Shown: positions 2,777 to 35,278 of the stretch, piece by piece
Position numbering within the stretch: the first letter of the stretch is position 1
How the letters are laid out: every line of letters begins with the position of its first letter
Source: a virus
Lineage: Duplodnaviria; Heunggongvirae; Uroviricota; Caudoviricetes
IMG/VR virus record: IMGVR_UViG_2671180892_000013
Length of the DNA stretch: 36,388 nt
Direction: 5' to 3' (one strand)
Position numbers and translations under genes: made by a program
The notes under the pieces: model-generated
The model's input: the letters and a program-made list of their open reading frames with translations, nothing else
Told to the model about the DNA's origin: nothing
Database searches by the model: none

Positions 2777-3046
2777 TTGCCTGAAATTCAATGCCTTTCA
2801 TATCATTAACTTAACTCATCCCATCTTAGCCATTGGCGACAAAATGGCGGCAGCGCATTTGAAGCCACATTGTTACCTTCAAAGCCCAAACAATTATTGC
2901 ATATCAGTCATACATATCTCATTTACAAAAACCTCCGAGATTTCAGTGCGTAACCTAAATTTCTTGGATGTACTAGCTTAAAAATGTTATTGATCTTAGT
3001 TGAGGTAAGAGATTGTTTTCATATGTTTTTAAACTAGGACGGCGCT

Positions 3047-3409
3047 ATGTGCATTTATGATTTTGTAGCTAACGATGGAAATACGTATCAGATTGATCTT
3101 GATGACGAGTACATTGAGGTTCGGCTAAGCGGTGAAAAAGTGGGTAGTATTAGTCTGAATTTGATTCAAAATGATGATTATTCACCCGATTATTATTACA
3201 TCACAGACCTTAGCCTCGAAAAGTGCAAAAGATTGGGTATAGGAAGAGAATGCTTACGGTTACATCAAAAAGAAATAAAGAGCCCAATCTGTGCTGCGGA
3301 AGAAAACTCGGTGAAAATGTCTGATGGAAGCCATCTTATTGGAGATGGAGTTCCTTTTATCGCTAAAATGCGTGATGAGGGAATCGTTGTCCCAAGTACA
3401 TATCATTAA
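3047..3409 (+). CDS. small GNAT-like (acetyltransferase-fold) hypothetical protein; cargo gene at prophage left end
   Basis: 120-aa ORF in AT-rich DNA with an R-L-G-I-G-R segment resembling GNAT motif A; agga 8 nt upstream of the ATG. Confidence 0.35.
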   Translation: MCIYDFVANDGNTYQIDLDDEYIEVRLSGEKVGSISLNLIQNDDYSPDYYYITDLSLEKCKRLGIGRECLRLHQKEIKSPICAAEENSVKMSDGSHLIGDGVPFIAKMRDEGIVVPSTYH

Positions 3410-3424
3410 TTTATCCCCTACTTT

Positions 3425-3446
3425 TAGCCCAGGGTGAACTGGGCTA
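3425..3446. terminator. hairpin between convergent GNAT-like gene and ogr
   Basis: tagcccag ggtgaa ctgggcta perfect 8-bp stem; no strong T-run. Confidence 0.35.
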
Positions 3447-3469
3447 GTTACCCACAAATTTTAAGCACT

Positions 3470-3685
3470 TCAGTAAACTAATTGTTCCTGCATACCTTTT
3501 GGATGAGGCGGCGCTGCGCTGATTTTTTGAGGACGGCATACTGAGCGCACAAAAGTCTCATGTGTCACGAACGTATGCCCGCACTCGATGTTAGTGCACT
3601 GGTTGTAGCGTTCTTTGGTTTCATTGGAAACCTGAAAGCTACTACGTGTATGCGCGGCCTGCCCGCACATTGGACAATTCATCAT
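3470..3685 (-). CDS. ogr: Ogr/B-family zinc-finger late-gene transcriptional activator
   Basis: 71 aa with CPMC ... C-x5-C cysteine pairs; sits next to gene D as in P2 and 186. Confidence 0.85.
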   Translation of the reverse strand: MMNCPMCGQAAHTRSSFQVSNETKERYNQCTNIECGHTFVTHETFVRSVCRPQKISAAPPHPKGMQEQLVY

Positions 3686-3752
3686 TTCGTTCAGCCCTCA
3701 CTCATAACCAGTTCGCAATAATGATACATTATTGTTCTCAATTTGGAACTAA

Positions 3753-9417: not shown

Positions 9418-10590
9418 TTACGCGCTGACCTGGCTGGCGAAATTCACCAGGTACTGATCGGTGATACGCTGGCGCAGCATCAGATTTTCAAGTGGCGGCA
9501 CTGGCGTGTAGTCATAGTCGATGGTGAGTTTTCCGGCTTTCAGCGTGTCTTTGTCGTTCACCGACTCATCCAGCCAGCAATCACCACCAATGAGATAGCC
9601 CTGACTGACCAGGCTGCGCATTTTGGCGCGGATACCTTCGATAATGTCGCGGGCCAACGACGGGTTCAGCGGTTTGTCCACCGCCCACATATGCGCTTCT
9701 GCCATTGTGTCCATAAGTACCTGCGCCGTGCGGGTGTAGTTTTCGAAGGCAAAGAGCGGATCATCGCTCAGACAGCGGGACCCCCAGAAGCGAAAACCAT
9801 CCTTGCGCACAAGCGTGGTGACGTCGTTCTGGTTCAGCAGACCTGCATCGGTTGCCGGGTCCTGCAGATCCCAGAACACATCAGCAGAAATTCCGGTGAC
9901 ACCGTTCACGCCCACGTTGGACAGGCTTTTGTGCCATCCAGTCTGCTCATCAATTTTGGCGCGCAGACCGAGCGCACGGGCGGTGGCATATGCCGTTGCT
10001 TCGGCATTCAGCACCGTGTCCCAGCCAGTAAAGTCAGGCCAGATCAGCATCCCTTCGCGCTGGCTGAAGTTTTCGCGGTAAGTGATCGCCTCCTGCACTG
10101 TCTTGCAGCCATACGCTGACAGGTAAGCAAACCCACGCAGGCTTTGCGCCACGCTCAGCAACTCAGTCGCAACGGCTTTGTTATCGTGACCTGGCACGCC
10201 GAGAATGCGCGGTTTAACGCCGAGCTGTGACTGGGCAGATAGCAGGGCTTTCATGCCTGTTTTTTTACCTTCAGCAGTCACAGCGCCGATGATATTGGTC
10301 GTGGTTTCGTCTTCCGTTTCACCCTGCGGCACACGCACAACAACGGTCACGGGTTTTGCCTGGTCAGCGATGGCATCCAGCGAACGGGCCAGAGTACCGG
10401 ACTCACCCGCTTTACCGCTGGCAGTCAGCACATCAGTGATCAGCACGGGTTTATTAAGAGGAAACATTTTTGCATCGGCATCATCGCCCGTGCAGACCAT
10501 ACCCACGATGGCGGTGCTCACCGTGGTAATGGATCGGGTGCCTTCGTTGACTTCAACAACGCGCACCCCGTGGTGGTAATCCTGAGCCAT
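9418..10590 (-). CDS. FI: contractile tail sheath protein FI
   Basis: 390 aa; first gene of the FI-FII-E-T-U-D block. Confidence 0.9.
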
Positions 10591-14390: not shown

Positions 14391-14736
14391 TCTCTGCTCC
14401 TGTTGATACGGAAAGGGAAACAGGCACACCGTTATTCCGCCGCCCGGTCAGCTCCACCACCATTGAACCGTCAAAATTGCTGTGGATGGTGATGGAATCC
14501 AGCGTCAGCCGTGGCTCCCAGCGACTCAGCGCCACATACACTGCCGACATGACCTGCAGGCGTAATGCCGGATTTTGTGGCTGGTCTATCAGTGCCGACA
14601 GCAGGGAACCATATTCACGACGGGCAATGCGACTACCCTGTGGTGTCAGCAGAATGTCCCGCACCGACTGGCGCAGATGGTCAATATCAGTAATGGCTTT
14701 GCCGCTGGTATTGTTCATCCCGCTATAAAGCGTCAT
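14377..14736 (-). CDS. W: baseplate wedge protein W
   Basis: 119 aa between V and J. Confidence 0.8.
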   Translation of the reverse strand: MTLYSGMNNTSGKAITDIDHLRQSVRDILLTPQGSRIARREYGSLLSALIDQPQNPALRLQVMSAVYVALSRWEPRLTLDSITIHSNFDGSMVVELTGRRNNGVPVSLSVSTGAENGSD

Positions 14737-15311
14737 ACCGGACCTCCGGTTGTATCGCCGCCTTTCAGGACGCCAGTATGCTGATGCGCATCAACCACGA
14801 TCCCGTTAGAACTCATCGCTCCGCCGCCCTGGGTAATGCCACCATTGATCACCACTTCGCTGTTAATGCGCGTGCGGTCAGCCTCCAGTACAAACTCACT
14901 GGTTTTCATGGTGATGTTGTCAGCGGCCTCAATGACCATTGATTTGATGCCCCTGACATACCAGCGCCCAGTGGCGGGTTCGTATTCAAACCAGCCACCG
15001 TCAGGATGTTCTGTCACGCAGGCGTCCGCCGACGTCGACGGTGGCGCGAACTGATTCGAATAGATGGCGGGTAACGCAAAGGCGGTTTCCAGATTGCCGC
15101 CCAGACTCAGCAGCACCACCTGCTCACCTTCCGATGGTCGCCACCATGTGCGGGCATTACCCGCGCGCAGCGTCAGCCAGTTAATCCAGTTGGTTTCAAG
15201 GTCGCCCGTTTTCACCCGACAAAGCCAGTTTTCCCGGTCCACTTCGGTGACTACACCTATGCGGATCAGATTGGTGATAAGGCGCATGATTTCGGTTAGT
15301 TGTGCGTTCAT
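14733..15311 (-). CDS. V: baseplate spike/assembly protein V
   Basis: Start placed at the ATG at 15309-15311 (MNAQLTEIMRLITNLIRIGVVTEVD...), where gpV-like sequence begins; the track ORF runs 81 codons further into AT-rich cargo DNA. Confidence 0.8.
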   Translation of the reverse strand: MNAQLTEIMRLITNLIRIGVVTEVDRENWLCRVKTGDLETNWINWLTLRAGNARTWWRPSEGEQVVLLSLGGNLETAFALPAIYSNQFAPPSTSADACVTEHPDGGWFEYEPATGRWYVRGIKSMVIEAADNITMKTSEFVLEADRTRINSEVVINGGITQGGGAMSSNGIVVDAHQHTGVLKGGDTTGGPV

Positions 15312-15357
15312 AGATATATGATGACAGCTGAAAACTTGTTTATAACTTCTTGCAAAT

Positions 15358-15375
15358 TGTGGTATCGATGGTACA
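15358..15375. promoter_or_regulatory. TGT-N12-ACA dyad upstream of V; also lies between a sigma70-like -35/-10 pair for the plus-strand cargo gene
   Basis: tgtggtatcgatggtaca; flanked by ttgcaa (15350-15355) and tacaaa; function ambiguous. Confidence 0.3.
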
Positions 15376-15414
15376 AATTGATAAAAGGATAAAAAACAAC
15401 CAATAGGTGGATAA

Positions 15415-16221
15415 ATGAGTGTTATGAATCCAATAAGTTCTAATATATTTAATGCTGAATTTTTAAACACCCCGGCAGCGGCACTTGCCGCATGGATTTC
15501 CATTATTGGAGCTGTTATAACTTTGGTGACGATAGTTATAAGAGCACTATTCAAATATAGAAAATCTCATGATGTAATTTTGAAAAAATCAGGAATACCT
15601 GCGTTTATATTAAATTTTTTTCTTATACGAATATCATTAAAAAGGCTGCCTACTATCACATGGGCTGAAAAATCAATCACGGTTCTCTTTTCACTTCTTT
15701 TTTTGTATGCAATTTATATTTTTGGTCCAGTTTTCATCCAAGCCATTAGAACCCCACCAAATAGCACATTGCTTTATTGGATAAAGTCCGGTGAATCATT
15801 TTATATGTCAAAAAAACTGGCGACTGCAGCTACAATATTAACCACTCCTGATTGGGAAATATCAAAGGATGATTGCGAAGAGTCATCCTCTGCCAGTACA
15901 GAGAAGTACAAATCATTAACTATCGAACATAAAGAAATTCTTTGTAAACTACTAACCACTGATGAAGGGAATGCTTACATTGATGAAGAAGTCAAGAATT
16001 TCGTTAAAGACAAATTCTTTATCTATTCCTTTGCCCCAACAACCATATTTATTCTATTATGGATTTCTTTGGGTTTTATACTGACCATTCACTATTCTAA
16101 AAAAGTTAGGAAATATATTCTGACTGAACAAAAAAATGCAATTCATTGGGCATATGGTGAATTCAAGACAGAAGGAATCTATTCAATATATCAAGAGTTA
16201 GAACGTAAGACTCACCATTAA
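15415..16221 (+). CDS. hypothetical multi-pass membrane protein; cargo gene in the S-V intergenic region
   Basis: 268-aa ORF in very AT-rich DNA, several hydrophobic helices, aggtgg SD before the ATG; opposite strand to the flanking late genes; 3' end overlaps the S 3' end by 59 bp. Confidence 0.6.
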   Translation: MSVMNPISSNIFNAEFLNTPAAALAAWISIIGAVITLVTIVIRALFKYRKSHDVILKKSGIPAFILNFFLIRISLKRLPTITWAEKSITVLFSLLFLYAIYIFGPVFIQAIRTPPNSTLLYWIKSGESFYMSKKLATAATILTTPDWEISKDDCEESSSASTEKYKSLTIEHKEILCKLLTTDEGNAYIDEEVKNFVKDKFFIYSFAPTTIFILLWISLGFILTIHYSKKVRKYILTEQKNAIHWAYGEFKTEGIYSIYQELERKTHH

Positions 16222-16609
16222 GACCCAACAAACGACGCTCTGCGTAACGCACTTCCGGTCCTTTGCGGCTGACGCGATCGCGCAGGCCATAATGGTGAAC
16301 GCGGGCAATGCGCTGCACCTTACTTTCAAACTGTACGCAGGCAGAGTCGGCGCTGGCGGCGGTTTTCAGGTATTTGGTGGTGCGCAGCTTTGCAAACATC
16401 TGACGTTTGATGCGGCCTTTTTTACTGCGCGCCGTGACCTTGCGCGGTTCATAACTGCTGCCATCTGGATTGCGCTGCATCCTGATATTCTGCTGCTGTG
16501 TCCGGCGAAGTTCCTGCGCCAGCTGGCGCATCATGCGGCTTCTGGCGGCTGGTTCCAGATTCGCCAGCAAGGCACTCAGCCGGTCGTCCACTTTCTGCAG
16601 TTCAGCCAC
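16163..16609 (-). CDS. S: tail completion protein S
   Basis: 148 aa between R and V, GTG start; last about 20 codons are encoded by AT-rich cargo-type DNA. Confidence 0.75.
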   Translation of the reverse strand: MAELQKVDDRLSALLANLEPAARSRMMRQLAQELRRTQQQNIRMQRNPDGSSYEPRKVTARSKKGRIKRQMFAKLRTTKYLKTAASADSACVQFESKVQRIARVHHYGLRDRVSRKGPEVRYAERRLLGLNGESYVLTLDILNRFLLS

Positions 16610-24576: not shown

Positions 24577-25449
24577 CTACCAATTCATGCTTTCTTTTAA
24601 TTCAGTTCGCGCATTTTCAACAAGTTGTACCAACTCTTTAAGACTATCAGTTAACACTTGATGACTACCTTTATTTGTTCTATATGTTAACATATTTACA
24701 TTTAATGTTTTTTCAATAACAGGAACCATATCTCTATGAATACTTTTATCAGCCATAACCATATAATGTGGTTTAACAGCATTGTGCTTGAAAAAAGCAT
24801 CTTCCAGAAGAAGCCTTATATCGGGGTCATTAGCCCCACAACCTATAAATAGAAATGTATGCGTTAAACCCAAGGCATTAAGAATCTCGTAAAAATCTCT
24901 GTACTGTGATCTTGCCTTTGCATAATCACTTCTTGAAAAAATCAAGTTTGACGTATTATCAATTGTGCCGTGAATTTTCAGAATAACACGACCACTATCC
25001 TTTATTGCACTTGCAATATCACTATCAAAATAATTTTTGACACTTACCGTGCCTTCTGTTTCTTTACTAACATATGTTTCATATATTTTATCAAAATTAG
25101 GCGTTACAACAATCCTGCAATCTAATTTAAAAAGAAACTCATGTATATCTGCTTTAGCATAATGTGGATTCAAGAATGCATTTTTTGCAATTTCATCGAA
25201 CCTCCCTTTAGGAAGCTTTGCCTTAATTAATTCACAAGCAGTCAAATAATCTTCGTTTTTAATCAATCGTTTAATTTGTAGCGATGACCCAGAACTGAGT
25301 TCTGGTAAACATCCTTCAAGAAATTGTTTCCAACTTGGAGGCCGTGAATTACCTTTACCAACACTGTTCATTGAGACGCCTGCCCCCAGAAATAAAATAC
25401 ATTTCCGTCTCGCTAAATCGGAGACTAAGCTTTTATCCCAATTAATCAT
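24577..25449 (-). CDS. SIR2-like domain protein (predicted NAD-dependent effector), second gene of a two-gene cargo operon
   Basis: 290 aa; CILFLGAGVS glycine-rich motif near the N-terminus, TPNFD, IHGTID (HG), FLFIGCGANDPD; AT-rich; ATG overlaps the upstream ATPase stop (ATGA). Confidence 0.7.
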   Translation of the reverse strand: MINWDKSLVSDLARRKCILFLGAGVSMNSVGKGNSRPPSWKQFLEGCLPELSSGSSLQIKRLIKNEDYLTACELIKAKLPKGRFDEIAKNAFLNPHYAKADIHEFLFKLDCRIVVTPNFDKIYETYVSKETEGTVSVKNYFDSDIASAIKDSGRVILKIHGTIDNTSNLIFSRSDYAKARSQYRDFYEILNALGLTHTFLFIGCGANDPDIRLLLEDAFFKHNAVKPHYMVMADKSIHRDMVPVIEKTLNVNMLTYRTNKGSHQVLTDSLKELVQLVENARTELKESMNW

Positions 25450-26453
25450 GACTCACTCGCAGCAACATTATCAAGGATACGGGAACAAATACTTTCAAAA
25501 AGCTTCTTAGCATCGTTTACTTTTGAAAAGTGCGATCCTACTACCCCATCTTTATTTTTAAGATTAAAAATTGGAGCATTTGCTAATTGAGACAATGGAA
25601 TTAAGCTATTCATATTCTCAATTTGCCCTAAATCAAAATTCATATCTTGTTTTTTTGCGTAATTATTGATTATTTCTGCTTTCATTGCCTTAGGAATTTT
25701 AAGTGCAATTTTTTCATACGCATTAACTTTTACTTTCTCTCCCCTTACTGTTTTCCCTTTATATTGTTGCATCGCATACCCAAGAAACTTCAGTCTGCAC
25801 TGTAAAGATGAGCCATCGATGATAAAATCTTCACCTTCATTTTTAGTATAGTTTTTCAGGCCATCAGATACACCTTCCATCCAGGCCTTTAGCGAAAGGT
25901 TAATATTATTAAGAGCTAAAAGACTAAACATATCAACAGACATTGGAATAATGAAATAGTCACATGATATTATTATTGCTCTATTCAATGCACCTAATGA
26001 AGGGCCTACATCATATAAAATAAAATCATAGTCTTTATACATGGAGGACAGATGTGAAAAAACAAATGTTGTTTGTATACCTCGAGGTTTCCCTGCCACA
26101 GCGGGGTCCCAATCAGATGCTAAAAAATCCTCACTCAACGCTAACTTGGGATCCCCAGGAATCAAGTCAAAACCAAACCTATCAGTTTTTATTGGAACTA
26201 CACGAGTAGTTGCATATCCTTTTGCCCTCCGAACTGGGGTTAAGAAATTTTCAATTGTATTTCTCTTATCAGAACCATAAAGTTCATCAAGTTTTTTCTC
26301 TCCCAAACAATAAGATGTTGTGTTGCACTGAGGATCGGCGTCAATAACCAACACTTTTTTGTGCATCTCAAGACTAAGATAAGCACCAACATTACACAAC
26401 AATGTAGTTTTGCCAACGCCACCTTTATTATTGAAAAAAACTATACTGTTCAT
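25446..26453 (-). CDS. ParA/MinD-superfamily deviant Walker-A ATPase, first gene of the cargo operon
   Basis: 335 aa; NNKGGVGKTT at residues 8-17, VIDADPQ, ILYDVGPS; no ParB-like gene follows. Confidence 0.75.
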   Translation of the reverse strand: MNSIVFFNNKGGVGKTTLLCNVGAYLSLEMHKKVLVIDADPQCNTTSYCLGEKKLDELYGSDKRNTIENFLTPVRRAKGYATTRVVPIKTDRFGFDLIPGDPKLALSEDFLASDWDPAVAGKPRGIQTTFVFSHLSSMYKDYDFILYDVGPSLGALNRAIIISCDYFIIPMSVDMFSLLALNNINLSLKAWMEGVSDGLKNYTKNEGEDFIIDGSSLQCRLKFLGYAMQQYKGKTVRGEKVKVNAYEKIALKIPKAMKAEIINNYAKKQDMNFDLGQIENMNSLIPLSQLANAPIFNLKNKDGVVGSHFSKVNDAKKLFESICSRILDNVAASES

Positions 26454-33194: not shown

Positions 33195-33339
33195 AAGGCA
33201 ACATTCCTTATAGATATGGCTTGTGGCGAGCCGTAGTTTGTCGTGATTAGTAGTGAAGGCTCCAAAAGAACACTTCTGGTTCAACTTTAAGATCGCTTTT
33301 GGAATCTGTCAACGAATTTTGGATTTCCTTGGAGGACTC

Positions 33340-33915
33340 ATGGATTTCAGCAGCGGTGGTAAGAAAGTCATTGAACGTCTAGTTGAGGCGTACGGGTTCT
33401 CTACGAGACAAGCTCTTTGCGATCATTTGGGAGTATCCAAGAGCACCATGGCTACACGTTACATGCGAGACATCTTCCCTGCAGATTGGGTTTTGCAATG
33501 TGCTATTGAAACTGGTTATCCACTAGAATGGCTGGCATTCGGTATAGGGGACAAAAAACCCTCAAATATAAATGCACAAATTTTGGTACCAAAGAAAAAA
33601 TTAATTTCAGGAACGTTAATTGAAGATGGAGCATATATTTTTGATAAAACATTCTTACCTGAAAAAATATGTAATCCGTTCATCATTCAAGATCTGGATA
33701 ACGAATACATATGTAGCTCTGAATATAATGACATAAGCGATGGATTGTGGCTAATAGGCATAGACGAAAAAATTTCGGTCCGAACCCTGACCCGCTTACC
33801 TAATAACAGGTTATATGTTGAAGGAGGAAATCGTGGCTTTGAGTGTTCCAGAGATGAAATACAGGTTATTGGAATTGTGTGGTGCTGCATACTAAGAAGA
33901 GCAGAAAAATTTTAG
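33340..33915 (+). CDS. cI: CI-like immunity repressor
   Basis: ATG at 33340 preceded by ggagga; 191 aa, N-terminal HTH-like region (ERLVEAYGFSTRQALCDHLGVSKSTMATRY); 186 CI is about the same length. Confidence 0.7.
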   Translation: MDFSSGGKKVIERLVEAYGFSTRQALCDHLGVSKSTMATRYMRDIFPADWVLQCAIETGYPLEWLAFGIGDKKPSNINAQILVPKKKLISGTLIEDGAYIFDKTFLPEKICNPFIIQDLDNEYICSSEYNDISDGLWLIGIDEKISVRTLTRLPNNRLYVEGGNRGFECSRDEIQVIGIVWCCILRRAEKF

Positions 33916-33946: not shown

Positions 33947-35278
33947 ATGCCTATTGAATATACGTTTGATTATCGTGATGAGTTCCTTCGTAAGCCTATT
34001 GCTGAAAAATTAATAGCTCTACTGAACTCTGATATTAACTTATCTCCGCTGGTTATAGATGGCGGATGGGGCACGGGAAAAACAGAGTTTTGCAAAAAAG
34101 TTGCAAATCTAATTGAAAACAATAATCAAAAACATAAAGTAGTTTACATTGATGCTTTCGCTGAAGATCATAATGATGCCCCCATTTTGACGTTAATGGC
34201 AGGTGTTGCTGCACTTTTGCCCGAAGACAAACGAAAAGAGTTGATAAGCAAAACACTACCAGCAATACGTTTTGGTTTGAAAACCATTTTCAAAGCTGGC
34301 ACTGGATGGGTGTTAAAACAAAATGCAGATGACATTGTTGATGGCTTCGAAGATGCTATCAAAGAAGCCACTTCGAGTGCAATCGACAGTACAATTGAAA
34401 CATTATTAGACGATCATATAGAAGCACAGAAAAACATCGAGACATTGAGAAATACAATTTCGCAACTTACAGAGAAATTTAAAATAACGATTATTATAGA
34501 CGAACTGGACAGATGTAAACCTACATTCGCTCTTTCAATCATAGAAAATATTAAACACATTTTTGAAATAAAAAACTTGAATTTTGTTTTGGTTGCAAAG
34601 ACTCAACAACTCAAAGCATCAATAAGCCATCTGTATGGTTTATCCATAAATGCAGAACAGTATTTAGACAAATTCATAAAATTTACATTTGTATTGCCCG
34701 ATACATTTAAACCAGACAACTATACACCTGCATACGCATCTGTCGCTTTATGGGAAATATTAAAAAATGATTCTCAAAGACTGCAAGAAGTAAACGAAGA
34801 ATGCGGGCATATTATAAAAACGATAATACAAAGAGCTAAGTTGTCTTTACGTGAAGTAGAAACATTATCGCGCCATTTTGAAATATATCAGGTGCTATCT
34901 CAATCTGGAATTGGTCCAGAAAAAATATTTGGTTATTCATTATACCGAACGTTAGGAGTGATGCTATATTCTCTAAATCGCCCTTTGGCATTAAGCTATC
35001 TAGATAATTCTGTGGATGCAGAAAGTACTATCAAAACATTAGGCTTTGAATATTTAAGTTATGATGAGGATATTTATAGTGTAGATAATACTGAATATGC
35101 TATTTATGGGATCGTACTAGACTATATTGATGCAACATCTCCATTCTTTATAAAGGATGATGAAACCAGAAAAAAATGGACTGAACATGCTACCTATAGT
35201 TTCTTTCAAAAGGGCTTAAATACTGTTCCTCCCCGAAAACTTGTTTCGTCCGCCATTGAAGTTTTAATGCTCAACTAA
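33947..35278 (+). CDS. KAP-family P-loop NTPase; cargo gene between cI and int
   Basis: 443 aa; Walker A GGWGTGKT, Walker B IIIDELDRC; strongly AT-rich codon usage. Confidence 0.7.
   Translation: MPIEYTFDYRDEFLRKPIAEKLIALLNSDINLSPLVIDGGWGTGKTEFCKKVANLIENNNQKHKVVYIDAFAEDHNDAPILTLMAGVAALLPEDKRKELISKTLPAIRFGLKTIFKAGTGWVLKQNADDIVDGFEDAIKEATSSAIDSTIETLLDDHIEAQKNIETLRNTISQLTEKFKITIIIDELDRCKPTFALSIIENIKHIFEIKNLNFVLVAKTQQLKASISHLYGLSINAEQYLDKFIKFTFVLPDTFKPDNYTPAYASVALWEILKNDSQRLQEVNEECGHIIKTIIQRAKLSLREVETLSRHFEIYQVLSQSGIGPEKIFGYSLYRTLGVMLYSLNRPLALSYLDNSVDAESTIKTLGFEYLSYDEDIYSVDNTEYAIYGIVLDYIDATSPFFIKDDETRKKWTEHATYSFFQKGLNTVPPRKLVSSAIEVLMLN

Follow-up and report, generated by a model that had tools for sequence, protein, structure and literature searches.

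What is a lone, AT-rich gene doing between two tail genes of a P2-like phage, on the strand opposite to its neighbours, and how can such cargo be exchanged inside an essential late-gene cluster? We address this for a window of 36,388 nucleotides, the whole stretch of DNA that was analysed (IMG/VR record IMGVR_UViG_2671180892_000013). The host prophage is a P2/186-like prophage of E. coli, and the cassette between its genes S and V is a single-gene accessory "moron" at the classical orf30 site, a locus published as a site of horizontal transfer in P2-like phages (PMC3091744). The locus is built up as follows:

15312–16221, no strand assigned: AT-rich cargo cassette, the unit exchanged between phage backbones (GC, breakpoints, identity steps)
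15415–16221, plus strand: DUF6216-family gene, 268 aa plus stop codon, ATG start (ORF, Pfam, homologues)
14733–15311, minus strand: gene V, baseplate spike, first gene of the V late operon (Pfam Phage_base_V and Apex; PHROGs 9992 and 11)
16163–16609, minus strand: gene S, tail completion/virion morphogenesis, intact (Phage_tail_S; PHROG 26)
16163–16221, minus strand: last 19 codons and stop of S, inside the cassette, antisense to the cargo C-terminus and dual-coding (ORFs, breakpoint alignment)

The first-pass annotation had described a 268-residue reading frame in AT-rich DNA on the strand opposite to the late genes, and both the ORF call and the GC profile agree: the GC fraction is 0.30–0.36 across 15300–16200 and 0.55–0.60 on both flanks, and the cargo ORF itself has 33% GC and a GC3 of 27%. 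It runs against all late operons and lies about 1 kb from the lysis genes. The cassette occupies the space between S and V in a P2-like late region, is present in some relatives and absent from others, and differs in base composition from its surroundings. The 3′ ends of the cargo gene and S overlap tail-to-tail by 59 bp (16163–16221), also as annotated, and the V reading frame starts at the ATG at 15309–15311 on the minus strand. S matches Pfam Phage_tail_S over its full profile (positions 2–147 of 148; 129 bits, 1.6e-37).

The S–V junctions of insert-less relatives show where the cassette begins and ends. Alignment with the insert-less relative CP019275, whose S–V gap measures 68 bp, places the left break immediately behind the start codon of V (15312) and the right one near 16221, and the breakpoints against the insert-less relative L001 lie at the V ATG and near 16221. 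Because of the position of this right break, residues 130–148 of S are encoded by island DNA, which turns the earlier estimate of about 20 codons into 19. In the cargo gene the synonymous difference (pS) is 0.36 in the S-overlapping part and 0.52–0.68 elsewhere. A relative that carries the cassette on a diverged backbone (L038) gives the same borders: identity is 0.95–1.0 inside and about 0.8 outside, with sharp steps at about 15300 and about 16200 (16198 for the end of the high-identity stretch), so that the annotated bounds of 15312–16221 are almost exactly those of the recombination unit. In the same comparison pS is 0.037 for the cargo gene and 0.39–0.54 for the V and S flanks. We thus show that the cassette spreads among diverged phage backbones via homologous recombination in S and V, and the island moves as one unit: along with the cargo gene it brings the 19 terminal codons of S and a V late promoter copy of its own. 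A transposon-type insertion was rejected, as a repeat search found no flanking direct repeats, target-site duplications or terminal repeats. An Rfam scan of the island gave only a chance match (E 0.17).

The distribution of the cassette is patchy, and together with the identity steps and the pS contrast this supports the view that the cargo was acquired horizontally. We found the cassette in 111 and an empty junction in 539 of 5,426 complete E. coli genomes; most close relatives thus lack the cargo gene, and they keep complete late-gene sets. In related E. coli prophages the S–V site is either empty or filled by TIR, FRG or other single genes, and the FRG protein at this site in one of them matches the PADLOC candidate PDC-S15 (8.5e-32). 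Other accessory loci of the window's prophage encode a SIR2-like protein and a KAP NTPase (PDC-S20, 578 bits).

How is the promoter of V preserved in this exchange? The region upstream of the cargo ORF contains the following elements:

15312–15414, minus strand: cassette-borne intergenic region holding the V late promoter, PV (alignment of carriers versus empty sites)
15358–15375, no strand assigned: TGT-N12-ACA dyad, late activator box (Ogr/Delta type) of PV (read from the sequence)
15405–15410, plus strand: Shine-Dalgarno AGGTGG, 4 nt before the ATG (read from the sequence)

These 103 bp are not just a promoter region for the cargo gene, as they hold the Ogr/Delta box and the V late promoter core. 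The dyad centre and the V ATG are 55.5 bp apart, as they are in annotated P2 (activator site 10239–10266, V start 10308), and both the empty site and all cassette types contain the dyad. The region is nearly invariant among DUF6216 carriers, even when their proteins are only 47–50% identical, and it is unlike the corresponding region of empty-site phages except for the two dyad halves. We therefore discarded an assignment of 15312–15378 to the phage backbone: the alignment shows that the whole intergenic region is cassette-specific, with the dyad alone in common. Spread by homologous recombination in S and V accounts for a cassette that carries the S 3′ end and its own Ogr-activated copy of the V promoter and, because both travel with the cargo, the cargo can be swapped without breaking the late-gene cluster. 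This architecture is a clear example of how accessory genes can be made exchangeable inside an essential late-gene cluster that itself stays unbroken.

Expression of the cargo gene is less apparent from this region. The Shine-Dalgarno proposed in the first-pass annotation is present; it reads GGAGGA in most homologues and is kept as GGAGGA or GGTGGA in homologous cassettes. The candidate sigma-70 promoter, however, was not confirmed. A simple consensus scan, which a weak or non-canonical promoter could escape, gave neither a plus-strand promoter upstream of the cargo ORF nor a terminator, and the candidate stretch is the Ogr box. The best match by eye, TTGCAA-N16-TACAAA, agrees at 8 of 12 positions, lacks the T at −7 and overlaps the TGT-N12-ACA box. 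A bidirectional Ogr box that also drives the cargo gene was rejected, as the mirror-image plus-strand start at about 15422 would fall past the ATG at 15415. That the cargo gene is expressed in the lysogen is what we infer from its orientation only.

The cargo gene is real and under purifying selection. By our own arithmetic the chance of an open frame of 268 codons in DNA of 33% GC is about 1e-9, and dN/dS is 0.15–0.32 (Nei-Gojobori, where dS is unsaturated). The product matches Pfam DUF6216 (PF19723), a rare family of uncharacterised membrane proteins in Proteobacteria, with 44.6 bits (gathering threshold 27.3; E 1.5e-11), and RefSeq already lists the identical sequence as "DUF6216 family protein", with carriers that include the E. 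coli B strains C3029, C2566 and BLR(DE3). One record names the gene ybl42, and the accession of the protein in BLR(DE3) is WP_000115390. Homologues that are 50–100% identical occur in Enterobacterales, and all full-length homologues bear a precomputed PF19723 match. The homologues fall into 32 clusters in a collection of 5.8 billion proteins, and into 49 at the 50% identity level in a set of 1.84 billion representatives; a second search with a diverse family alignment gave few distant members, the word index being limiting. The match to the family is partial, with residues 73–237 aligned to profile positions 115–265 of 270 and positions 1–114 unmatched, whereas the canonical member P0080 matches positions 15–265 (180 bits). 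The cargo protein has membrane helix 2, the periplasmic domain, membrane helix 3 and two invariant cysteines in common with canonical DUF6216 proteins such as P0080. Only in the latter are membrane helices 1 and 2 separated by an additional helical domain of about 70 residues in the cytoplasm, in place of which the cargo subfamily has a short basic loop. On sequence grounds the cargo protein is thus assigned to a short-loop subfamily of DUF6216 that departs from the canonical full-length architecture.

The annotation of a multi-pass membrane protein is in line with our predictions, which combine hydropathy (Kyte-Doolittle windows of 19 residues above 1.5) with an AlphaFold2 model and yield the following segments:

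15472–15546, plus strand: predicted membrane helix 1, aa 20–44 (Kyte-Doolittle centres 25–40; AlphaFold2 helix 20–46)
15547–15672, plus strand: predicted cytoplasmic loop, aa 45–86, Lys/Arg-rich and conserved (8 Lys/Arg; 71% mean pairwise identity; pN/pS 0.25)
15673–15741, plus strand: predicted membrane helix 2, aa 87–109 (hydropathy centres 93–104; AlphaFold2 helix 83–112)
15742–16032, plus strand: predicted periplasmic domain, aa 110–206 (about 97 aa), four short strands followed by helices (AlphaFold2)
15874–15876 and 15943–15945, plus strand: codons of Cys154 and Cys177, in the predicted periplasmic domain
16033–16098, plus strand: predicted membrane helix 3, aa 207–228 (hydropathy centres 210–220; within the long AlphaFold2 helix 183–245)
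16099–16218, plus strand: predicted cytoplasmic C-terminal tail, aa 229–268, basic and conserved (8 Lys/Arg; 76–79% mean identity; pN/pS 0.19–0.29)

The protein is predicted to reside in the inner membrane and to cross it with three helices, its N-terminus outside and its loop and tail, both basic, in the cytoplasm. The distribution of Lys/Arg residues (0 in the N-terminus, 8 in the loop 45–86 and 8 in the C-terminal tail) fits the positive-inside rule. The mean pLDDT of the model is 78.7, with values of mostly 83–94 in the periplasmic domain and 63–69 for residues 151–170. In a family alignment of 39 sequences with a mean identity of 25%, Cys154 and Cys177 are the sole invariant columns, which fits an oxidised periplasmic domain; a Cys154–Cys177 disulfide probably holds this domain together. 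Nowhere else does the protein vary as much as in its periplasmic domain (mean identity 53%, pN/pS 0.44). Two allele classes can be distinguished: class A, which includes the window's protein, and class B, with IMGVR_UViG_3300036778_000006 (locus L042) as an example. Between them the N-terminal 61 and the C-terminal 42 residues are 66–77% identical, while across helix 2, the periplasmic domain and helix 3, which form one module, identity drops to 34–35%. The alignments hence show a mosaic diversification, with deeply divergent classes of what appears to be a periplasmic module set in a conserved frame.

The occupant of this site in P2 itself resembles the cargo protein. P2 Orf30 (NP_046770), a nonessential protein that is entered as 'unknown' in the published description of the locus (PMC3091744), occupies this site too, is oriented likewise with respect to the late genes and, with 261 aa, is about as long. 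From membrane helix 2 onwards its predicted elements follow the order seen in the cargo protein, with four strands, a short helix bearing Cys 1, a helix bearing Cys 2 and a long helix that continues into membrane helix 3. A direct BLASTP comparison of the two proteins is not significant (E 0.63) and Orf30 has no match in Pfam. However, the two-cysteine motif lines up when the profiles of the two are compared (hhalign probability 58%, E 9.6e-5), and a BLASTP match (E 9e-5) that spans the cytoplasmic domain and membrane helix 2 links Orf30 to the canonical DUF6216 protein P0080. Orf30 is probably homologous to the cargo protein, as a remote relative. Unlike the cargo gene, orf30 has no overlap with S, and P2 has a terminator after S. 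P2 orf30 is present in 461 of the 5,426 complete E. coli genomes, so that cassette and orf30 together would occur in about one tenth of them if the two sets barely overlap. Our literature searches found no reported phenotype for DUF6216 or P2 Orf30, and nothing relevant for DUF6216 or ybl42.

What, then, does the cargo protein do? PADLOC-DB 2.0 has no matching family at E values up to 10, PHROGs and NCBIfam give nothing significant, tblastn against 50,697 phage records returns no match (Orf30 included), and neither Foldseek against PDB and BFVD nor a sequence-profile search of PDB finds anything; Pfam, PHROGs, tblastn and Foldseek thus yield no homology to a structural or lysis protein. The most likely role, and in our view a plausible one, would be superinfection exclusion by an inner-membrane guard made in the lysogen. 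The lysogen-made protein would stop an incoming phage genome from crossing the inner membrane, in the manner of SieA, gp15 and Imm. Recognition of a given invader or injection apparatus would depend on the fast-diversifying periplasmic module, and the conserved cytoplasmic parts would serve as a common scaffold. Circumstantial evidence for this reading comes from the selection on the gene, its predicted membrane topology, the mobility of the cassette, the defence-type genes at this and the other accessory loci, retention of the gene after prophage decay and its mosaic diversification. The link of the S–V site to defence is by location only, through the TIR and FRG/PDC-S15 alternatives found there, and the variable periplasmic domain also fits a sensor, a bacteriocin or tailocin immunity protein, or relaxed constraint.

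The fate of the gene after prophage decay bears on these alternatives. At the ybjL attachment site the cargo gene is intact and alone in one genome (L018), and in another (L006) it is intact in a prophage remnant of which only a CI repressor and an ATPase are left besides. Intact copies beside degraded fragments of S, R or ogr occur in Serratia, Klebsiella and Citrobacter (L007, L003 and L020). The cargo gene thus survives intact in decayed prophage remnants, a sign of selection. Its persistence as a lone intact gene after complete prophage loss, with the remnant in L006 as a second case, points to a phage-independent benefit for the host, for instance as a lysogenic-conversion factor that confers immunity to a pore-forming bacteriocin or tailocin, or that modulates envelope stress or transport. 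Immunity proteins have a comparable layout, as small multi-pass proteins of the inner membrane whose periplasmic face varies. Moreover, the genes at P2 accessory sites do not all serve defence, as partition systems and the cdt toxin are found there as well (PMC9122126). Yet the protein has no similarity to immunity, transporter or stress families in Pfam, NCBIfam or PDB, no toxin gene adjoins it, and DUF6216 genes are tied to prophages or mobile elements wherever their context can be read, and we regard a host-fitness role unrelated to phage as possible but rather unlikely.

Abortive infection is a second alternative, in which the membrane protein would stay inert until a phage cue is received through the cytoplasmic loop or tail or the periplasmic domain. 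It would then depolarise the inner membrane or make it permeable, so that the cell dies before phage release. A common view holds that membrane proteins in known defence systems act as suicide effectors (PMC9122126), and a single-gene membrane cargo at an accessory site that elsewhere holds TIR and FRG genes would suit such a role, as would the conservation of the cytoplasm-facing parts (pN/pS 0.19–0.25). In addition, distant DUF6216 genes in mobile elements adjoin a fused AAA_21-DUF4435 gene, a PARIS-like domain pair. On the other hand, the cassette has no partner gene, the protein has no recognisable sensor or enzymatic domain and matches none of the PADLOC models, and the part that diversifies is periplasmic, facing incoming virions rather than intracellular phage products. 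We consider this mechanism unlikely for the cargo protein.

A benefit to lytic growth, through holin- or antiholin-like lysis timing or help in tail or baseplate assembly that would make the S–V position meaningful, is highly improbable: its location inside the late region, the Ogr box upstream and a sub-threshold holin resemblance of membrane helix 1 (Phage_holin_2_3, E 0.037 and 14.5 bits against a cut-off of 28.8; PHROG 4237, E 0.26) are outweighed by a strand opposite to every late operon, a position outside the lysis cluster, an Ogr box placed for V whose mirror-image start falls within the cargo gene, absence from most close relatives with complete late-gene sets, and persistence in remnants without lysis or tail genes, and we rejected the holin reading on its low scores, strand and absence from relatives.

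Superinfection exclusion can be taken one step further, albeit tentatively. DUF6216 and P2 Orf30 may form one old superfamily of prophage inner-membrane exclusion proteins at the P2-like S–V junction, in which a swappable, disulfide-stabilised periplasmic module would decide which incoming contractile-tailed phages or tailocins are halted at the inner membrane, while the conserved cytoplasmic frame would act as an anchor. If the cargo protein acts against phages at the inner membrane, it would represent a new single-gene exclusion family; if the superfamily reading is true, it would provide a function for the long-unexplained orf30 of P2 and a new single-gene defence at the level of the envelope in about 10% of complete E. 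coli genomes. The two deep classes of periplasmic module in a common frame are a natural experiment, and could be swapped to map specificity. In addition, E. coli B production strains such as BLR(DE3) carry the gene, and any effect on phage sensitivity would bear on contamination and on phage-host studies.

How does the cargo protein compare with known exclusion proteins? P22 SieA has three predicted membrane helices, and its sequence types share under 30% identity with one another (PMC10883804). The moron that encodes HK97 gp15, an inner-membrane protein, lies among the tail genes and is active in the prophage (PMC3594210), and the tape measure protein is bound by T4 Imm (bioRxiv 10.64898/2026.03.06.709160). 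All three are phage-encoded proteins of the inner membrane, as the cargo protein is by prediction. However, the cargo protein has no detectable sequence or fold similarity to any of them, is larger, and has a predicted folded, cysteine-bearing periplasmic domain.

Finally, the S–V site follows the same logic as the hotspots of P2-like phages, old/tin by the portal gene, Z/fun among the tail genes and the CI-proximal site, where variable AT-rich cargo lies between core genes, and the other hotspots of the window's prophage are also occupied. The S–V (orf30) site is not among the P2 defence hotspots that have been experimentally tested and validated (PMC9122126, PMC9519451). It differs from these in that it usually holds one gene, and in that each cassette must carry the 3′ end of S and the promoter of V along with its cargo.

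The window, a piece of E. coli chromosome, opens at its left end with the host genes grxA, ybjM and ybjL, followed by a P2/186-like prophage that runs up to the integrase. Between two tail genes of this prophage lies the accessory gene considered here:

14733-15311, minus strand: tail gene V (Pfam Phage_base_V plus Apex)
4 nt upstream of the cargo ATG, plus strand: Shine-Dalgarno AGGTGG, by sequence reading
15415-16221, plus strand: DUF6216 cargo ORF, 268 codons with an ATG start, between V and S
16163-16609, minus strand: tail gene S (Pfam Phage_tail_S, whole profile matched)

From ~15300 to ~16200 the GC content drops to 0.30-0.36, against 0.55-0.60 outside, and the cargo ORF itself has a GC of 33% and a GC3 of 27%. 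The first-pass annotation of an AT-rich, opposite-strand ORF with its own Shine-Dalgarno is thus borne out, and the ORF coordinates agree with the 59-bp overlap (16163-16221) it described between the converging 3' ends of cargo gene and S. Aligning the window to CP019275, a close relative without insert in which S and V are spaced 68 bp apart, puts the left junction directly behind the ATG of V and the right one at ~16221. Because the junctions fall at these positions, S residues 130-148 are encoded by the island, as had been proposed for the last codons of S. This end still conforms to the family, with N131, D140 and L146 invariant, and the S product continues to match the full Pfam profile. 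A repeat search found no direct repeats flanking the island, and an Rfam scan of the island gave no match.

The 103 bp separating the V and cargo ATGs contain a perfect TGT-N12-ACA dyad of the Ogr/Delta activator type (15358-15375), whose centre lies 55.5 bp from the V ATG, equal to the distance between the annotated activator-binding site and the V start in P2. The dyad is kept in the empty site and in all alternative cassettes, while the remaining intergenic DNA differs by cassette. Given the junction positions and this cassette-specific intergenic DNA, the mobile unit comprises the cargo gene along with the S tail and its own copy of PV, the V late promoter. The P2 annotation sets the V transcription start on the V start codon itself (15309-15311 in the window), and the V mRNA would be nearly leaderless if the usual -55 spacing holds. 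A sigma70 promoter had also been put forward for the cargo gene, but a promoter scan detected none upstream of the ORF on the plus strand; the best candidate by eye, TTGCAA-N16-TACAAA, which overlaps the dyad, agrees at 8 of 12 positions. No intrinsic terminator is predicted on either strand where S and the cargo gene converge. Late transcription past S would read antisense over the entire cargo gene into the V promoter, which could silence the cargo during lytic growth.

The cassette moves as a unit. Nucleotide identity to the IMG/VR locus L038 is ~0.75-0.88 in V, 0.95-1.0 at ~15300-16198 and ~0.8 in S, and the synonymous difference (pS) between the two is 0.037 for the cargo gene, 0.39 for V and 0.54 for S. 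These steps, at ~15300 and 16198, coincide with the insert bounds read earlier from sequence (15312-16221). Flanks resembling those of the window, for both S and V, occur in ~1,050 complete E. coli genomes; the junction is empty in 539 genomes and holds the window cassette in ~110. Other occupants, each single-gene, encode a TIR-domain protein or an FRG-domain protein matching the PADLOC candidate PDC-S15, and phage Cartapus carries a different, unannotated ORF of 176 aa (L002 1908-2438). Two further S-V cassettes hold unannotated genes:

L013 795-1949, S-V site: 384-aa cassette gene, overlapping the S 3' end by 23 bp
L014 820-1635, S-V site: 271-aa cassette gene with a weak, below-threshold HNH-like match (E 5.6e-4)

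The TGT-N12-ACA box is retained in the L013, L014 and L002 cassettes. In P2 the occupant is Orf30, a nonessential protein of 261 aa encoded opposite to the late genes; P2 orf30 DNA occurs in 461 genomes. It is well established that a one-gene accessory cassette occupies the orf30 site here and is swapped via recombination in S and V. P2-like phages have been described as gathering horizontally acquired genes in three regions, the orf30 locus among them, with Orf30 itself listed as "unknown" (PMC3091744; see also PMC6823313). Experimentally validated hotspots lie elsewhere, at old/tin beside the portal gene and at Z/fun (PMC9122126, PMC9519451, bioRxiv 10.1101/2024.10.15.618418), and a 2026 survey noted minor hotspots inside tail genes (PMC13586616). 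The S-V site is a small accessory hotspot.

The cargo ORF is a real gene under selection, with dN/dS of 0.15-0.32 (pairwise Nei-Gojobori, for pairs with unsaturated dS). Its product matches DUF6216 in Pfam at 44.6 bits (gathering threshold 27.3). The family is real but rare: 32 homologue clusters with 50-100% identity come from Escherichia, Salmonella, Citrobacter, Klebsiella, Serratia and relatives, and only 49 clusters emerged when 1.84 billion representative proteins were searched exhaustively with a profile. Of 5,426 complete E. coli genomes, 111 contain the exact cassette, among them the E. coli B strains C3029, C2566 and BLR(DE3), where such genes are annotated as "DUF6216 family protein", or ybl42 in one record. 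All intact phage contexts share a fixed geometry (V start, 103 nt, cargo ATG, cargo 3' end overlapping S), which persists at just 47-50% protein identity.

Hydropathy yields three strong membrane segments (residues 20-44, 87-109 and 207-228), in keeping with the multi-pass protein first annotated. Lys/Arg counts are 0 in the N-terminus, 8 in the loop 45-86 and 8 in the C-tail (229-268), so the positive-inside rule predicts an N-out topology in which the loop and the C-tail are cytoplasmic and residues 110-206 periplasmic. An AlphaFold2 model from an 18-sequence alignment (mean pLDDT 78.7, pTM 0.62) predicts a periplasmic domain in which four short strands (118-150) are followed by short helices, by a helix at 170-181 and by a long helix at 183-245 that traverses membrane helix 3; pLDDT there is mostly 83-94, falling to 63-69 across residues 151-170. 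In a family-wide alignment of 39 sequences with a mean identity of 25%, Cys154 and Cys177 are the only invariant columns, and conservation exceeds 90% at Phe129 and Trp147. The conserved cysteine pair in the predicted periplasmic domain suggests a disulfide. Foldseek searches with the model returned nothing similar (best E 0.36 in the PDB and 0.57 in BFVD), nor did a sequence-profile search of the PDB give a match.

Conservation is uneven along the protein. The N-terminus, cytoplasmic loop and C-tail average 71-79% pairwise identity (pN/pS 0.19-0.29), against 45-53% in the segments from membrane helix 2 through the periplasmic domain to membrane helix 3 (pN/pS 0.44-0.57). Between the window allele (class A) and class-B alleles (L024, L042, L043, L003), DNA identity at the gene ends is flank-like at 77-88%, whereas across 15600-16078 it is 40-57%; the corresponding protein identities are 66-77% for the N-terminal 61 aa, 34-35% for the middle 161 aa and 67-76% for the C-terminal 42 aa. 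This mid-gene collapse between conserved ends indicates at least two deep classes of periplasmic module within a conserved frame. Where the cargo gene overlaps S, pS goes down to 0.36, which fits dual coding as both strands code there.

Is the cargo protein related to Orf30? BLASTP gives a collinear but non-significant alignment (E 0.63), and DUF6216 is not detected in Orf30 by Pfam. When the DUF6216 alignment is compared profile to profile with the Orf30 family, its two-cysteine motif falls on the pair of invariant Orf30 cysteines (probability 58%, E 9.6e-5). Orf30 also aligns with P0080, a canonical DUF6216 protein (180 bits to Pfam), at E 9e-5 over a stretch that spans membrane helix 2 and the cytoplasmic domain. 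In an AlphaFold2 model built independently for the Orf30 family, the elements that follow membrane helix 2 come in the order of the cargo model: four strands, then a short helix bearing Cys 1, a further helix bearing Cys 2 and a long one that continues into membrane helix 3. Together, the profiles and models make remote homology of the two proteins probable. If so, members of a single superfamily have settled at the S-V site repeatedly and in one orientation.

The other accessory loci of the window prophage hold defence-type genes:

24577-25449, minus strand: SIR2-like protein (Pfam SIR2_2, 84 bits; PADLOC ThsA- and LmuA-like)
25446-26453, minus strand: ParA-like AAA_31 ATPase, adjoining the SIR2-like gene
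33253-33915, plus strand: CI repressor, left of the KAP NTPase
33947-35278, plus strand: KAP P-loop NTPase (PADLOC candidate PDC-S20, 578 bits)
from 35306, plus strand: integrase, right of the KAP NTPase

The SIR2-like and ParA-like pair fills the portal-adjacent locus (the old/tin position of P2), and this locus, 24577-26453, differs from the otherwise close RM10466 prophage. The KAP NTPase occupies the CI-proximal hotspot known for P2-like phages. At 2856-3733, beside ogr at the prophage-host junction, the window has ~590 bp more than the RM10466 relative, including a 120-aa plus-strand ORF (3047-3409) for which neither Pfam nor PADLOC gives a match. Distant DUF6216 genes with 17% identity lie in integrative elements of Serratia fonticola and metagenomes (L015 6645-7708; L016 and L017 6654-7708), each directly downstream of a small gene (~110 aa) that is weakly NIPSNAP/ABM-like, with which it could form a two-gene operon; the window cassette has no such partner. 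In one of these distant loci the DUF6216 gene lies close to an AAA_21-DUF4435 fusion, a PARIS-like domain pair.

The gene, its DUF6216 family name and the variable S-V site were already on record. New are the exact definition of the cassette (S tail, cargo and its own PV promoter), its movement as a unit and its retention in remnants, as well as the two-class mosaic of the periplasmic module and the probable link between P2 Orf30 and DUF6216. We consider the locus of moderate interest, the cassette being common and easy to test.

What might the protein do? The cargo can be classed as a prophage moron encoding a predicted membrane protein. In two other Enterobacterales little of the prophage is left: in L018 (7001-7792) an intact DUF6216 gene stands alone between ybjL and the following host gene, in the attachment site used by the window prophage, and in L006 (6001-6804) an intact copy at the ybjL site shares a prophage remnant with a CI repressor, an AAA_15/AAA_21 ATPase and a GIY-YIG gene; both look like decayed prophages pared to accessory genes. 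Citrobacter (L020), Klebsiella (L003) and Serratia (L007) likewise have intact copies, next to S, R or ogr that are frameshifted or fragmentary. Genes that outlive their prophage usually benefit the host. A host-fitness or immunity factor that is not directed at phages is an unlikely alternative. An abortive-infection membrane effector is slightly less likely; the sequence does not separate these two readings from a guard against phages. A lytic-cycle function is highly improbable. The remaining probability falls to no function or to some other reading.

The exclusion or abortive-infection role suggested in the first-pass annotation is a sensible guess, though no more than that. Our preferred, still tentative, reading is that the cargo may be a prophage-expressed inner-membrane guard against incoming phages. 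Such a guard would be expected to have a diversifying periplasmic module, as seen here. It would act at genome delivery of the incoming phage, by analogy with SieA, gp15 and Imm: SieA of P22 is an inner-membrane protein with three membrane helices that blocks injection and occurs in highly divergent sequence types (PMC10883804), gp15 of HK97 is a moron within the tail genes (PMC3594210), and Imm of T4 binds the tape measure protein (bioRxiv 10.64898/2026.03.06.709160).
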